Of a stretch of DNA of 64,000 nucleotides, positions 6,420-32,369 are shown piece after piece. The stretch's first letter is position 1. Every line of letters starts with the position of its first letter. Below the pieces are notes generated by a model, which worked only from the letters and a program-made list of their open reading frames with translations, did no database searches and had not been told where the DNA came from. This stretch comes from Ideonella sp. (GTDB taxonomy: Bacteria > Pseudomonadota > Gammaproteobacteria > Burkholderiales > Burkholderiaceae_C), in NCBI RefSeq assembly GCF_041914305.1, contig NZ_JAYSDQ010000026.1:17944-81943 (forward strand). The letters are read 5' to 3'. The translations under genes and the position numbers were made by a program.

Positions 6420-6809
6420 ATGACGCAGCTGAAGATGACCATGGCCATCGCCGTGGCCGGCGGACCGACGTGGAGCATCAACCGCACTGAAGACGTCGAG
6501 GCCTACGACGTGGTGTCGGTGGCCATCCCCGCCGGCGCCACCGACACCGAGGTTCAGGTTCAACCCGGCGAATCGGCCCAGATCATCGTGCTGGCGATCC
6601 AGTCCAGCGTGTATGGCGACGACATCACCTACAAGGCGAGCGACGGCACCACCGACTCCGACGAGCTGACGCTGCATGGCCCGCAGTTGTTCGGGCGCGG
6701 CGTCACCAGCCTGTTCGGGCTGGACGTGAAGACGCTGAAGTTCAGCAACGCGCTGGCCGACGGCACCGCGACGATCCAGGTGCTGGTCGGCCGCGACGCG
6801 ACGGCCTGA
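6420..6809 (+). CDS. Hypothetical protein, first gene of eCIS operon
   Basis: 129 aa, host-like codon usage, AGGGG RBS, beta-strand-rich; 29 bp before the sheath gene. Confidence 0.75.
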   Translation: MTQLKMTMAIAVAGGPTWSINRTEDVEAYDVVSVAIPAGATDTEVQVQPGESAQIIVLAIQSSVYGDDITYKASDGTTDSDELTLHGPQLFGRGVTSLFGLDVKTLKFSNALADGTATIQVLVGRDATA

Positions 6810-6838
6810 CCCCGACCCGCCACCGACCGAGGTTCCCC

Positions 6839-28358: not shown

Positions 28359-31300
28359 ATGCAACACGCACCGCCGATCCAGCGCCAGGCGCCCGCGGCC
28401 CGGGGTGCGCCCGTGACGGCTCGCCTGGCGAAACTGCTGGTGCGACCGAAGCTCAAGCTCGGCGGGGCCCACGACGAGGCCGAGCGACACGCCGACCGCG
28501 TCGCGGCCAAGGCGCTGGCCACGGCAGCCAAGGCCGCCGCACCGGCCGCACCGGCCACGCCAGCCGCACCCGCCAAACGCACGGGCAGCGCAGCGCACGC
28601 GGCCCCCGGCCCGCTCGTCGAGCCGGCGCATGACGAGCGCCGCGGTGAGCTGTGGCGCGAGCTCGATGCCCGCGTCGATGAAGACCGTGGCATGGCTCTG
28701 GACCCCGGCCTCGCGTCGCGCATCGCCGCGTTGCAGGCCGGCGGCGCGCCGTTGCCAGCGGCCGTGCGCCGGGAGATGGAGGCCGGCTTCGGCATCGACC
28801 TGAGCAGCGTTCGGGTGCACACCGGTGCCGAGGCGAACGTGTTGGCCGAGCAGCTTCATGCGCACGCGTTCACGGTCGGTGAGCACATCGCTTTCAACCG
28901 CGGCGCATTCGCCCCGCAGTCGGGCGCTGGCCGCCACCTGCTGGCCCATGAGCTGGCCCACGTCGCCCAGCACCGGGCCTCGCAGGGTGCGCTGGTGCCG
29001 GCCGATGCGGCGCCCGTGCGCCGCGAGACCCGGGAGGACCCGGGCTTCTTCTCCAGCCTGTTCGACGGCGCCGGCCGCTTCCTCGCCAACCAGGGCTGGC
29101 GCGTGTTGCGCCGCTACGCGCCGCGGCTGGAGCCGATCGTGCGCGAGGGGCCGGTGAACTGGCTCAAGGGCCAGCTCAGCCGCGTGTTCGATGGCCTGAC
29201 CGGCGCACTGAACCGCCTGAACCCGGCCGGCGCGATCGACACGCTGTCCTCCGTCTTCGGTGGCCTGGTGGCGCGGGCACAGCCGATCATCGCGGCGCTG
29301 GCCTCGGGCGATTGCGAGCCGCTGTTCCAGGCGGTGCGTGAGCTGCGCACGTTCCTGGCCGACACGGCGGGCGCGGCGTGGGCGCGGTTGACCGAGTTCT
29401 TGCAGCCGGTGGGCGACTTCTTCTCGCGCATCTGGGCCGGCTACGGCGCACCCGCCGTGCAGTGGCTGCAAGAGACGGCGGGCGATGTGTGGGGGTGGCT
29501 GCAAGAGCTGGGGCGCGACATCTGGGACTGGACGCAACCGGTGCGCGAAGACCTCGGCGCCGCCTGGGACTGGATCAAGGAGCAGCTGTTCGGCACCGAG
29601 CCCACCGACGCCAACGCCGGCGAGAACCGCGAAGGCCTGATCGGCTGGATCTCGCGCAAGGCCGGCGAAGCCTGGGACGCGATCAAGGAGCAGACGCGGC
29701 CCGTGTGGCAGCCGGTGGCCAACGTGGCCGAGCGGGTCGCGGCGCTGATCCCGCCGCCCTTCGTGGCGCGCATGGGCGAGCAGATGCAGCAGCTGGCCGG
29801 GCAGCTCGGCGACACCGCGTCGCAGATGGAGAGCCAGTCGGGCGGCCGCCCGGTGGCCGAGAACCGGCAGGCGATCGCCAGCGCGCTGCCCTCGGTGATG
29901 CAGGTGATCACCGGCGTGCGCGGCCTGATCGTCGACGCGGGCCAGTGGCTGGGCGATCGGCTCGGCGAGCTGGCCACCGGCATCGGCGACTGGATGGGCC
30001 GCCTGCGGGCGAGCCCGCTGCTGTCGCTGCTGGCGAACGCGCTGGGGTGGTTGCAGGGCGCGGCGCAGCGGCTGCTGGCCTGGGCGCGCGAGCAGGTGGG
30101 CGCGCTGTTCAACTGGCTGGTGCAGGGCTTCGACCGCCTCACGCCGTTCTTTCGCACCGTGCTCGAGACGGTGAACCGGCTGATCGGCGTGGTGACCGAC
30201 CTGATGATGCTGCCGCAGCTGGTGCTCTCGGGCGTGTGGCGGCTGATCCCGGCCTGCATCCGCGACCCGGTGCGTGACTTCCTGTTCACGCAGATCCTGT
30301 CGCGCATCCCGGTGTTCGGCGCCTTCTTCTCGAACCCCGAGCTGTGGCAGCGGGTGCAGGAAACGGCGCTCGAGATCCTGCGCCAGGCCTTCGTCGACGG
30401 CAACCTCGCGCGCGCCGCGTGGACCTTCTTCCAGGCCGTGCTGCGGGTCATGGGCCTGCCGCCCGAGCTGGTGGTGCGCATCCTGGCCAAGGCGGCACAG
30501 GCCATCGGCGATGTGCTGGCCAACCCGCTCGCCTTTCTCGGCAACCTGCTGCGTGCGATGCGCGCGGGCTTCGGCCGCTTCTTCGACAACGTCGGCACCC
30601 ACCTGCTGAACGGCATCGCGGCCTGGCTCTTCGGCGCGGCGCGCGAAGCGGGCATCGAGCCGCCGGCCGACTTCTCGCTGCGCGGCGTGCTGGGCTTCGT
30701 GCTGCAGGTGCTGGGGGTCACCGTCGACAACGTGTTCCGGCGGCTGGCCGAGCGCGTGGGCCAGGGCGTGGCCGACCGGCTGCGCCAGATGCTGGACGTC
30801 GCGACCGGCGTCTGGAGCTTCGTCTCCATCCTCGTCACCGAGGGCCCGGCGGGGCTGTGGCGCGAGGTGCAGCAGCGGCTGTCCAACCTGTGGGACTCGG
30901 TGGTGCAAGGCGTGATCGGCTGGGTCACCGAACGCATCATCACAGTGGCGACGCGCTGGCTGCTGTCGCTGCTGGACGTGACCGGCATCATGCCGATCGT
31001 CAACGCGCTGATCGCGATCTACAACGCGATCGAATCGTTCATCCAGTACCTGCGCGAGCTGCTGGAGATCGTCTCGACCGTGCTCGACGGCGTGCTCGGC
31101 ATCGCCCGCGGGCAGATCGACCAGGCTGCGGGCTTTCTCGAAGGCGCGCTCGCGCGTGCGCTGCCGGTGGCGATCGGCTTTCTTGCCAACCAGTTCGGCT
31201 TCGGCCGCATTGCGCACCGGCTGGCCGAGATCCTCGGCGCGCTGCGGGAGCGCGTGGACGCGGCCATCGACTGGGTGATCGACCGCGCGATCCGCCTCGG

Positions 31301-32369
31301 CCAGTCGGTGATCGACCTGGCCCGGCGCGGCGCTGCCGCGTTGCGTGACTGGTGGCGCGCCCGCGTGGCCTTCCGCTCGAGCAACGGCGAGCGGCACCAG
31401 ATGTACTTCCGCGGCGATGGGCGGCAAGCCGCGCTGATCCTCGAATCCGACCCCGAGCCTTTCCGCGACTTCGTCGCCCGGCAGCCCGACAGCGCCGACA
31501 AGACCGAGGCGCTGCGGCTGTACGACCTGCTGCGCCAGAAGCAGGACGAGGCTGTGTCCGCCGGCGCGGCCTCGGGCGGCGCGCGGCACACCGCAGCGCC
31601 CGCCGCCGGCAGCGCCGCTGCAGCGCCGGCGGCGCAGATCGAAGCGCTGCTGAACGACCTCTCGGTGGTGACGGCCCGGCTGCTGGGCAGCGCCCCGGCC
31701 TCGGGCGAACGGCCCGCCTGGGGCCCACCGGCGACCGACAGCTACGGCAGCGACGTGTCGGCCCCAGTGATCACGCGGGCGGCGCTGGGCGTGTGGCCGC
31801 GCGGCAGCACGCCGTCAGACTCGACCGCCACGCTGCGCGCCTGGCGCCGGCTGATCAAGCGCCGCAACGACCAGACCGGGGCGTCGTCGTACTACGTGCG
31901 CGGCCACCTGCTCAACCACAACATCGGCGGCCCCGGCGACGACTGGAAGAACCTCACGCCGCTCGCACAGGAGAGCAACAACCGCGCTGCCGACTCGATG
32001 CTGTACCGCTTCGAGCGGCCGGTGAAGGACGCGGTGGACGCCAACTCGACCGTGCGCAACTTCCACGTGCGGCCCACCTACGGCTCGACCGACCGCTCGG
32101 GCCAGATCGCCCAGATCGACACCGAGATCGCCGTCGCCAACAGAACGAGCACCGCGCCCAGGCGGGCACCGGGGCGGACGGTCGCCGAGCTGCAGGCCAT
32201 CCGCGACGTGGTGGAGACCGAGCAACACGTGGCCACGTCCATCACCTGCAGTGCCGTCATCGAGCGCGCCAACGGCGCGCGCCAGGCACTGAACGAGGTC
32301 ATCGACAACCGCCCGACCCTCACCCAGGGAGAGGACTGGACCCGCTACAAGGTGAATGTCAGCGCGTGA
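28359..32369 (+). CDS. DUF4157 protein with long amphipathic helical region and C-terminal DNA/RNA non-specific (His-Me) endonuclease domain
   Basis: MEAGFGIDLSSVRVH, AHAFTVGEHIAF, HELAH; Trp-rich helical middle; YYVRGHLLNHNIGGPG..NLTPLAQESN. Confidence 0.87.
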   Translation: MQHAPPIQRQAPAARGAPVTARLAKLLVRPKLKLGGAHDEAERHADRVAAKALATAAKAAAPAAPATPAAPAKRTGSAAHAAPGPLVEPAHDERRGELWRELDARVDEDRGMALDPGLASRIAALQAGGAPLPAAVRREMEAGFGIDLSSVRVHTGAEANVLAEQLHAHAFTVGEHIAFNRGAFAPQSGAGRHLLAHELAHVAQHRASQGALVPADAAPVRRETREDPGFFSSLFDGAGRFLANQGWRVLRRYAPRLEPIVREGPVNWLKGQLSRVFDGLTGALNRLNPAGAIDTLSSVFGGLVARAQPIIAALASGDCEPLFQAVRELRTFLADTAGAAWARLTEFLQPVGDFFSRIWAGYGAPAVQWLQETAGDVWGWLQELGRDIWDWTQPVREDLGAAWDWIKEQLFGTEPTDANAGENREGLIGWISRKAGEAWDAIKEQTRPVWQPVANVAERVAALIPPPFVARMGEQMQQLAGQLGDTASQMESQSGGRPVAENRQAIASALPSVMQVITGVRGLIVDAGQWLGDRLGELATGIGDWMGRLRASPLLSLLANALGWLQGAAQRLLAWAREQVGALFNWLVQGFDRLTPFFRTVLETVNRLIGVVTDLMMLPQLVLSGVWRLIPACIRDPVRDFLFTQILSRIPVFGAFFSNPELWQRVQETALEILRQAFVDGNLARAAWTFFQAVLRVMGLPPELVVRILAKAAQAIGDVLANPLAFLGNLLRAMRAGFGRFFDNVGTHLLNGIAAWLFGAAREAGIEPPADFSLRGVLGFVLQVLGVTVDNVFRRLAERVGQGVADRLRQMLDVATGVWSFVSILVTEGPAGLWREVQQRLSNLWDSVVQGVIGWVTERIITVATRWLLSLLDVTGIMPIVNALIAIYNAIESFIQYLRELLEIVSTVLDGVLGIARGQIDQAAGFLEGALARALPVAIGFLANQFGFGRIAHRLAEILGALRERVDAAIDWVIDRAIRLGQSVIDLARRGAAALRDWWRARVAFRSSNGERHQMYFRGDGRQAALILESDPEPFRDFVARQPDSADKTEALRLYDLLRQKQDEAVSAGAASGGARHTAAPAAGSAAAAPAAQIEALLNDLSVVTARLLGSAPASGERPAWGPPATDSYGSDVSAPVITRAALGVWPRGSTPSDSTATLRAWRRLIKRRNDQTGASSYYVRGHLLNHNIGGPGDDWKNLTPLAQESNNRAADSMLYRFERPVKDAVDANSTVRNFHVRPTYGSTDRSGQIAQIDTEIAVANRTSTAPRRAPGRTVAELQAIRDVVETEQHVATSITCSAVIERANGARQALNEVIDNRPTLTQGEDWTRYKVNVSA

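Follow-up and report, generated by a model that had tools for sequence, protein, structure and literature searches.

Does a phage-tail-like gene cluster on the chromosome of an Ideonella sp. (Burkholderiales) encode a complete contractile injection system (CIS) and, if so, would the particle act outside the cell that makes it? The cluster lies within the window, that is, the whole stretch of 64,000 nucleotides that was analysed (contig C26, positions 17944-81943), in a 6.47-Mb genome of roughly 70% GC whose source sample appears to have been activated sludge. An original prediction, made from the sequence, had proposed an intact chromosomal locus of the extracellular CIS (eCIS) type with an atypical parts list and two DUF4157 cargo proteins. 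Taken as a whole, the evidence is best explained by a complete CIS of the eCIS superfamily, assembled, loaded and acting as set out below, and we consider this reading likely. Furthermore, one gene of such loci, g5, gives rise in its middle part to a discrete and abundant RNA.

Gene content and integrity of the locus

Because the genome is GC-rich, raw lists of open reading frames (ORFs) were useless, and genes were called from the GC content of third codon positions (GC3) and from start context. Families were assigned by profile scans with Pfam, NCBIfam and PHROGs, besides which homologue lists and sequence searches of the Protein Data Bank (PDB) were used. The calls comprise 19 genes, all on the plus strand, between positions 6420 and 32369, with intergenic gaps of -8 to 45 bp and two exceptions (108 bp between g14 and g15, 295 bp between g16 and g18); a domain assignment was reached for 15 of the 19. 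Gene calling and profile scans thus confirm the earlier proposal of about 19 co-oriented genes with the parts then listed.

The products include a phage-type sheath (PF04984/PF17482), a gp19-type tube (PF06841), a Pvc16_N cap, an AAA+ ATPase, a spike and a hub (the hub match being weak), gp25, baseplate J-type wedges and 3' DUF4157 proteins, as expected of an eCIS. Pfam scans of the locus genes and ten flanking genes revealed no capsid, terminase or TssJLM, linkages that would speak against an eCIS, and no integrase or holin/endolysin. No ORF of the locus matched PAAR, the tip protein counted among eCIS parts, in the Pfam and NCBIfam scans, and no immunity candidate follows g19 or g20 either here or in the relatives. 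A 161-aa ORF behind the g20 homologue of one relative (G014) was considered as an immunity gene and rejected, given that in another (G002) it lies further downstream, after an unrelated gene, and looks like a flanking gene. The prediction that this is an intact CIS on the chromosome, belonging to the Afp/PVC/eCIS superfamily and encoding two DUF4157 proteins but no PAAR, lysis or immunity gene, is therefore borne out.

Every ORF is colinear with, and as long as, its orthologues in five other genomes, and hence no frameshifts are present, as the original prediction had held. Synteny is also found: gene order is retained in three genomes of the same genus (G002, G006 and G014) and partially in a fourth (G019), at 46-86% amino acid identity. 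The metagenome-assembled genome (MAG) Ideonella sp. SMAG_U1594, referred to below as the sister MAG, carries the same genes at 84-99% amino acid identity with no broken frame and holds the only near-identical public locus (sheath identity 97%); a single scan of genome contigs returned two loci only. The preservation of gene order without a broken frame in the genus relatives and the sister MAG indicates purifying selection. The chromosomal neighbourhood differs in distant members of the genus, and of 301 genomes sampled across the order no more than 4 carry this type of cap. Hence the locus has a patchy distribution and probably moves horizontally.

The locus of a closely related strain is represented in RNA libraries. 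Metatranscriptome contigs from four runs of one biofilm study cover positions 6000-32400 at 95-99+% identity and a depth of 2-20, compared with 20-360 for the neighbouring icd gene.

Structural genes from sheath to baseplate

The sheath is encoded by g2 (6839-8401; 520 aa), with matches to Phage_sheath_1 and Phage_sheath_1C (Pfam, 2e-10 and 4e-13). In the PDB sequence search, its nearest solved structures are those of Streptomyces CIS (8BKY, 4e-78; 8BL4, 5e-75) and Halogeometricum (9EZM, 2e-75), whereas the Afp, PVC, Anabaena and AlgoCIS sheaths match at 1e-39 to 1e-49 (Afp3, 9e-49; AlgoCIS, 1.5e-39). The inner tube protein, g3 (8435-8944; 169 aa; Phage_T4_gp19, 2e-38), finds its best PDB matches in the tube proteins of AlgoCIS (7ADZ) and Anabaena (7B5H). 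Upstream of the sheath gene, g1 (6420-6809; high GC3) encodes a 129-aa beta-rich protein from a family of 595 representatives of about 130 aa, for which no relative was found in Pfam or the PDB; it is present in the sister MAG (94% identity) and absent from the G002, G014 and G006 loci. The product of g4 (8952-9815; 287 aa, with two CxxC pairs) has no direct Pfam match and was assigned through its homologues as a baseplate-hub assembly protein like T4 gp51: of the 120 homologues listed, about a quarter carry a precomputed T4_baseplate (PF12322) annotation; the gene is syntenic in the relatives (47% identity; 84% to the sister MAG).

Beyond g5, which is discussed below, follow the cap or tail terminator g6 (10887-11915; Pvc16_N, DUF4255, 4.7e-16) and g7 (11926-13299), an AAA+ ATPase of the Afp15/Pvc15/Alg15 class (PF00004, 8e-24; 63% identity in relatives). 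The 84-aa Ala-rich protein g8 (13292-13546; 40-55% identity in relatives, 89% to the sister MAG) is encoded directly upstream of the tube initiator and is, by its position, a candidate plug of the Afp6/Alg6 type, a role described for Alg6 (PMC8894135). The initiator itself, g9 (13540-14187; 79% identity in relatives), matches CIS_tube at 6.4e-6, with 26.4 bits against a cut-off of 27.

The baseplate genes resemble those of P2- and T4-like phages. A small LysM-like baseplate protein of the P2 gpX/T4 gp53 type is encoded by g10 (14187-14531; phrog_7145, baseplate wedge, 1e-6), in which a LysM-like motif, LDWLATHYFNDSRLWWRIVDAN, is visible in the sequence and Pfam LysM itself is not matched. The hub, g11 (14557-15744), is gp27/P2 gpD-like (NCBIfam VgrG_rel, 1e-7, far under the cut-off; phrog_52, tail protein), and g12 (15756-16574; Phage_base_V, 5e-24) is a gpV-type spike with an HVH motif near its C-terminus (sequence end ...FATHVHTCTAPGSP...). 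In P2 gpV, an HxH-containing apex can replace a PAAR cap, and the predicted HxH apex of g12 itself may likewise stand in for one. The wedge is represented by the gp25-like g13 (16597-17034; GPW_gp25, 2e-10), the baseplate J-like g14 (17044-18228; 394 aa; TIGR02243, 3.6e-19) and the large J/gp6-like g15 (18337-21366; about 990-1009 aa; TIGR02243, 7e-41; phrog_219), which also matches the baseplate J-like chain of PDB 9GTP (6.5e-7). The series ends with the P2 gpI-like g16 (21363-23009; Tail_P2_I, 2.4e-6), of which residues 1-542 of 548 align to the orthologue in the sister MAG.

A discrete RNA from the middle of g5

The gene g5 (9836-10882), situated between those for tube and cap, encodes a 348-aa, mostly disordered protein rich in Pro, Ala and Ser. 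Its positional homologues in six loci have 325-356 aa, a low-complexity middle, a conserved N-terminus (MGLFxDTxRDARRPL) and a conserved C-terminus (LxIGRIDxTV...FLSRHYLRRL), and the indels among them are multiples of 3. The location between the tube and cap genes makes g5 a positional candidate for the tape measure; the ruler of tube length is most likely g5 and possibly the helical body of g20. The claim that a separate tape measure is missing is accordingly doubtful, with g5 in this position and g20 resembling the Tme protein of Streptomyces davawensis (PMC11126660).

Our conclusion is that, in loci of this family, the middle of g5 gives rise to a discrete and abundant RNA. In the present locus, this RNA of about 370 nt spans 9985-10365, on the strand of the gene, and is bracketed by a closing helix (9975-9986 with 10361-10372). 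In the four biofilm metatranscriptomes, positions ~9989-10318 are covered to a depth of 400-10,500 without mismatches, compared with 3-20 in the flanks; in abundance, the RNA stands 100-1000 times above the neighbouring mRNA. Illumina adapter letters abut 9989/9990, 10059, 10108 and 10315/10318, and their orientation is the same as for transfer-messenger RNA (tmRNA), which places the g5 RNA on the sense strand. Coverage is restricted to the left 120 nt in one biofilm run and to the right 200 nt in another. In one biofilm run, tmRNA reaches 2e4-1e5 and the g5 RNA of the same organism 5e3-1e4; in run X47, the values are 295-386 and 275, respectively, and in two runs the g5 RNA was found at 15-35 with tmRNA undetected. 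In one data set, the g5 RNA is as abundant as tmRNA.

The RNA is not confined to one study. When public runs were searched with 330 nt of the segment, the full sequence was recovered from many of them, belonging to at least ten further studies (2018-2025) with varied organism labels. In each of the eight runs examined, from eight studies, it forms a stand-alone contig of 332-374 nt within 9985-10365 with zero coverage of the flanks, and two runs contain natural variants that differ at 2 and 10 positions. In the divergent G014 locus, the corresponding segment (L016:9923-10289) likewise appears as stand-alone contigs of 350-393 nt with empty flanks, in root metatranscriptomes (depth 219 and 25) and in one organism-labelled run.

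Technical origins were considered as well. A copy-number artefact at the level of DNA was rejected, as the source DNA run shows flat 103.8x coverage on one 10-kb contig and the genome contains the segment only once. A fixed synthetic spike-in or library standard was rejected in view of the natural variants, the presence of two alleles at similar depth, the variable fragment ends and the like behaviour of the G014-clade sequence; the same observations make a laboratory amplicon an unlikely source.

The ends of the RNA coincide with the inner edge of the closing helix, in which GTCTCCAGAAGG (9975-9986) pairs with CCTTCTGGAGAC (10361-10372). This helix (9-12 bp) is conserved in seven loci of three clades, with one covarying pair and strands 382-423 nt apart, and forms part of the minimum-energy fold in five of six loci; a 12-bp match taken by itself is only marginally unlikely (50 of 1000 shuffles). 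The interior, folded as a single sequence, is no more stable than its shuffles (z = -0.67), and Rfam returned nothing for the window or the RNA region. In six loci the segment has lower GC and no codon-position bias, and across seven loci its length and a dip in GC are conserved and its sequence is not. The indels between the helix strands are multiples of three, indicating that the reading frame is kept as well. An exact-pattern search for the helix extended to two distant loci (L032 and L033; 42-43% cap identity), in which no g5-like gene is found.

Between this genome and the sister MAG, the RNA segment is the best-conserved stretch of the locus and the next 375 nt are the worst. This hypervariable part (10375-10750, in the second half of g5) directly follows the most conserved stretch and shows 18-33 differences per 60 nt, as well as indels. 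Within the 5' strand of the closing helix, a strong Shine-Dalgarno-like AAGGAGG is followed by GTG in the +1 frame (9981-9990); from that GTG the +1 frame is open through the RNA segment, with a predicted product that is very Arg-rich.

The g5 RNA is probably excised at the closing helix, for which RNase III would be the obvious candidate. Stable RNAs excised by RNase III are known from rRNA precursor stems and from the processing of phage T7 early mRNA. As in those cases, a long-range helix brackets an abundant segment; unlike them, the g5 segment lies within the conserved ORF of a CIS gene and its interior has no unusual predicted structure. That the RNA is more than a decay intermediate is a tentative idea to which we give a limited chance; in this view it would be shielded by protein as a component or passenger of the particle, serving as scaffold, ruler or cargo, or would stably regulate how particles are produced. 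A coarse search of the literature found no report of such an RNA product for a CIS.

The fibre and the two DUF4157 proteins

The three genes at the 3' end evolve in different ways. The tail fibre, g18 (23305-26796; 1163 aa), combines a DUF6519 domain (2e-10; the eBAP5 baseplate anchor) with a variable C-terminal part; DUF6519 fibres form a catalogued class, eBAP5, with 658 genes (PMC12923769). In the genus relatives, g18 is conserved over residues 1-522/562 only, and its identity to the sister MAG is 84-85%, compared with 94-99% for most core parts (g4, 84%, and g8, 89%, are lower).

The first cargo gene, g19 (26826-28313; 495 aa), encodes a disordered N-terminus, an eCIS_core/DUF4157 domain (residues 139-216; 3e-32; HELTH) and a 270-aa C-terminal domain. 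In the structural model, the predicted local distance difference test (pLDDT) is below 50 at residues 1-24, 71-86 and 91-119 and intermediate at 25-70, and the C-terminal domain is ordered. Relative to the sister MAG, the first 215 residues are kept (69% identity) and the C-terminal domain has been replaced; relative to the genus relatives, conservation extends only over DUF4157. Divergence of the fibre and replacement of the g19 C-terminal domain, against a core at 94-99%, are as expected if the former binds the target and the latter is an exchangeable toxin.

The C-terminal domain of g19 (27492-28313; residues 223-495) has 215 homologues at 50-65% identity, nearly always behind DUF4157, which are spread across phyla in bacteria and one archaeon; none of the 215 carries a Pfam family. 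The family shares an invariant DTIDLCPGDCG motif and an N-terminal Cys cluster. For instance, a Mycolicibacterium iranicum locus has the same type of domain on a short DUF4157 protein, together with a 1224-aa DUF4157 protein and a DUF6519 fibre; another copy of the domain is an orphan. The domain is modelled with a pLDDT of 93.7 and a predicted template modelling (pTM) score of 0.88, and its sole fold match, the C-terminal domain belonging to the Bacteroides type VI secretion system (T6SS) effector BtpeA (9JDI; E 3.7e-5), is no more than a hint at an antibacterial toxin.

The last gene of the locus, g20 (28359-32369; 1336 aa), encodes a disordered N-terminus, DUF4157 (eCIS_core, residues 131-207; 4e-29; HELAH), a Trp-rich helical region of ~780 aa and a His-Me nuclease-like domain. 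The latter matches Endonuclea_NS_2 at 7e-6, with 26.7 bits against a Pfam cut-off of 27, and a VRGH...N...ESNN motif is seen in the sequence. There are two weak hydrophobic segments only, and no tape-measure match was found for g20 in Pfam or the PDB; PDB sequence searches with g4, g18, g19 and g20 gave nothing usable. Clusters of the g20 family number at least 120; their identity of 45-68% extends in most cases over 80-100% of the length (lowest, 72%), with members mostly of 1200-1540 aa and hosts that include Piscinibacter, Variovorax, Azoarcus, Accumulibacter, Desulfobulbus and Verrucomicrobiales. Identity is 86% to the sister MAG and 51% to the genus relatives over residues 31-1308. In these comparisons, g18 shows the behaviour of a receptor-binding protein, g19 that of a polymorphic toxin carrier and g20 that of a fixed component.

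Relation to known systems

Given the ranking in the PDB sequence search, the sheath is a candidate member of the Streptomyces/haloarchaeal branch (dbeCIS lineage II) and not of the Afp/PVC branch. The Streptomyces CIS (CIS-Sc and that of S. venezuelae; 8BKY, 8BL4, 9GTP; PMC10066040) provide the closest solved sheath, lack an Afp14-type tape measure and treat PAAR as optional, their clusters having no typical Afp14 tape measure and no fibre, with PAAR present in one of two species and absent from S. coelicolor (PMC10066040). They differ from the present locus in being cytoplasmic, in having no tail fibre and in possessing two tube paralogues.

In its cargo, the locus resembles AlgoCIS of Algoriphagus machipongonensis, a released eCIS which has a single main sheath and tube, a cap, an AAA+ loader and fibres, and whose tube lumen is filled by exactly two DUF4157 cargo proteins (498 and 1228 aa; PMC8894135). 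With 495 and 1336 aa, g19 and g20 resemble this pair in DUF4157, layout and size and, by sequence and model, follow the Cgo1/Cgo2-type order of disordered N-terminus, DUF4157 and variable C-terminal domain; in addition, the AlgoCIS tube protein is the best PDB match of g3. In AlgoCIS, the disordered N-terminus is the loading signal and Alg15 the loader (PMC8894135; bioRxiv 10.64898/2026.05.27.728243). AlgoCIS differs in its fused VgrG-type spike, to which it adds the PAAR-like Alg10, a tape measure of the Afp14 type and further proteins that form a cage; its sheath is more distant from g2 (1.5e-39 versus 4e-78 for Streptomyces).

The long cargo protein has a further counterpart in Tme of S. 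davawensis, in which DUF4157, a tape-measure-like body and a C-terminal His-Me nuclease are joined (PMC11126660). Like Tme, g20 combines DUF4157 with a long helical body and a C-terminal EndA-like His-Me nuclease domain. Tme, however, is encoded upstream of the baseplate genes, has 2247 aa and contains predicted transmembrane (TM) helices, whereas g20 is the last gene and has 1336 aa; the position before the baseplate genes, multiple TM helices and phage tape-measure homology are all missing from g20.

The Serratia antifeeding prophage (Afp) and the Photorhabdus virulence cassettes (PVC) share with the locus the sheath, tube, gp25, baseplate J, Pvc16 cap, Pvc15-type ATPase and cargo at the 3' end. 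They differ in the number of paralogues (three for the sheath, two for the tube), in combining a fused VgrG with PAAR, in possessing Afp14 and in a cargo that lacks DUF4157, and their sheath matches to g2 are much weaker (1e-39 to 9e-49). Among the uncharacterised betaproteobacterial loci listed in eCIStem and dbeCIS, those of Methylibium sp. CF468 (EAT5) and Rhizobacter sp. Root29 (EAT1) are comparable in their environmental Burkholderiales hosts, DUF4157-associated 3' toxins and the lack, in most cases, of immunity genes; from these, only single toxins were tried, in E. coli or yeast (PMC8213781). More generally, DUF4157 is a core eCIS domain that lies on the N-terminal side of toxins, separated from them by linkers that are in some cases longer than 1000 aa; most validated eCIS toxins have no immunity genes (PMC8213781).

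Each of the supposed oddities of the locus thus has a precedent (PMC10066040, PMC8213781, PMC8894135, PMC12923769). As the absence of an Afp14-type tape measure, of PAAR and of immunity genes is normal on this branch, the proposal of an atypical variant is unsupported, and the locus is one more uncharacterised betaproteobacterial member of a family already catalogued in thousands of genomes. The expectation that it is unstudied stands, no experimental study having been found in the searched literature.

Proposed assembly and action

The following course of events would accommodate the parts described. The hub g11, spike g12, LysM protein g10 and initiator g9, perhaps together with the plug g8, would nucleate the baseplate, made up of g13-g16 and assembled with the aid of the gp51-like g4. 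Tube (g3) and sheath (g2) would then polymerise to a length set most likely by g5, or possibly by the helical body of g20, and the cap g6 would close the particle. The AAA+ ATPase g7 would load both DUF4157 proteins into the tube lumen through their disordered N-termini, with g19 bearing an exchangeable, toxin-like C-terminal domain and g20 serving as a fixed, length-conserved partner with a nuclease-like end. The fibre g18, anchored by DUF6519, would bind the target through its fast-evolving distal part, and upon contraction the spike would enter that target together with the cargo, the target being probably another microbe. Judging from the fibre and the loader, the particle would be released, that is, extracellular.

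Several observations weigh against this reading. Particle formation, release, loading, injection and target are predictions from the genes, and the locus encodes neither a lysis cassette nor an export route. The nearest structurally studied relatives of the sheath are non-extracellular systems. The hub, initiator and nuclease matches are weak or just under curated cut-offs, the candidate ruler g5 is assigned solely by position, and the match between the g19 C-terminal domain and 9JDI has a low TM score (0.34-0.40). Depth over the locus in the metatranscriptomes is low (2-20), with DNA carry-over being possible, and the strain in question differs by 1-5%, with one contig stopping at 22988, and appears to be without the miniature inverted-repeat transposable element (MITE)-like insertion described below, the hairpin of which (-197 kcal/mol) could attenuate expression of the fibre and cargo genes in the present strain.

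The most serious rival is a cytoplasmic, self-directed CIS of the Streptomyces CIS-Sc or S. davawensis type, which would fire under stress and cause death of the producer, or release of its DNA through the nuclease of g20. The proximity of g2 to the Streptomyces sheaths fits this scenario, as do the lack of lysis genes and of an immunity gene for a nuclease cargo, and g20 parallels Tme, a nuclease that drives the release of extracellular DNA in its producer. However, the Streptomyces clusters have no tail fibre, whereas this locus encodes a 1163-aa DUF6519 fibre whose distal part diverges rapidly from strain to strain, implying an external receptor; moreover, neither a CisA-like membrane protein nor strong TM segments in the small proteins are evident. 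We therefore regard a cytoplasmic system as unlikely.

Still less probable is a membrane-anchored, contact-dependent, T6SS-like apparatus such as those of Halogeometricum borinquense and Amoebophilus (T6SS-iv). The Halogeometricum sheath (9EZM, 2e-75) is as close to g2 as the Streptomyces sheaths, and lysis genes are lacking. No gene for a membrane anchor was found in the locus, though, and cap, loading ATPase and fibre are all present as in released eCIS; furthermore, a canonical T6SS is encoded separately, on contig C20.

A comparably slim chance attaches to decay or silencing of the locus, in which a repeat insertion would uncouple the fibre and cargo genes from the structural operon so that no functional particles are made. 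The insertion concerned is a MITE-like repeat of about 270 bp (22998-23266, between g16 and g18); its terminal inverted repeats are 20 bp long, and the genome contains at least 8 copies (90-97% identity). It folds into a single, very stable hairpin (-197 kcal/mol, z = -11.8), matches no Rfam family, replaces the end of g16, for which it supplies the final codons and the stop, and is found neither in the sister MAG nor in the genus relatives. A second repeat, of the repetitive extragenic palindromic (REP) type, occupies the g14/g15 spacer (18281-18337; 57 bp, with hairpins); it has at least 20 copies in the same genome (86-97% identity) and is overlapped by two terminator-like hairpins (18261-18319). 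Both insertions could affect expression of the operon in this strain. Neither breaks a gene, though; all 19 ORFs are intact and the REP-like spacer is common to this genome and the sister MAG. Intergenic repeats of such kind are usually tolerated in operons. The 80-aa ORF at 23025-23267, previously taken for a gene and here also considered as a PAAR candidate, lies inside the MITE-like repeat and is hence spurious, being part of a multi-copy element.

Least plausible of all, to the point of being nearly negligible, is an R-type tailocin or the tail module of a defective prophage, since the P2-like gene order, the split hub and spike (gpD/gpV-like) and the gpI- and gpJ-like baseplate proteins are accompanied by a Pvc16 cap, an AAA+ ATPase and two DUF4157 proteins, which to our knowledge are eCIS markers that tailocins lack, and no holin/endolysin, integrase, capsid or terminase was found among the locus and flank genes.

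Genomic neighbourhood and further contractile systems

The locus is flanked by genes for an RND-type efflux pair, an FGE-sulfatase-domain protein, a GH5 glycosidase, icd, HemN and a cbb3 oxidase, a gene set that points to a Gram-negative chromosome. Upstream and divergent, on the minus strand (3779-6169), lies the gene for the FGE-sulfatase-domain protein (796 aa), which carries this domain at the C-terminus behind ~550 unassigned residues; it occupies the same position in the sister MAG (85% identity). Downstream, also on the minus strand, the GH5 glycosidase gene (32382-33533) separates g20 from icd. The predicted location beside icd is thus correct, and in the sister MAG, from which the glycosidase gene is absent, g20 directly abuts icd.

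A second, more Afp-like eCIS locus in this genome, on contig C16 (~110,600-137,000), was delineated by tblastn, one Pfam family search and visible motifs. It encodes a Pvc16-like protein, a 639-aa sheath, a tube, a LysM initiator, a fused 597-aa VgrG, a 99-aa PAAR protein, gp25, a 1314-aa baseplate protein, an AAA ATPase and a 280-aa DUF4157 protein. In addition, contig C20 (76068-76976) carries a canonical T6SS sheath gene (VipB/TssC, 461 bits). Together with the locus described here, the genome therefore encodes three contractile systems.

Implications

For the eCIS family, the locus offers a clean comparative case, in which a pair of strains differs by a swap of the toxin domain, a diverging fibre tip and a MITE insertion. 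It also shows that the long protein in which DUF4157, a helical body and a nuclease-like domain are joined is a component of fixed kind and conserved length rather than a variable toxin, so that the alternatives of ruler, effector or both become testable in a Gram-negative host. The embedded RNA, if real, matters more than the identification of the locus as an eCIS. Even under a mundane reading it is useful to recognise, as the g5 RNA is a recurrent bacterial sequence in RNA-seq data labelled as other organisms. If it travels with the particles or controls their production, it would change the understanding of machines that are now being engineered for protein delivery.

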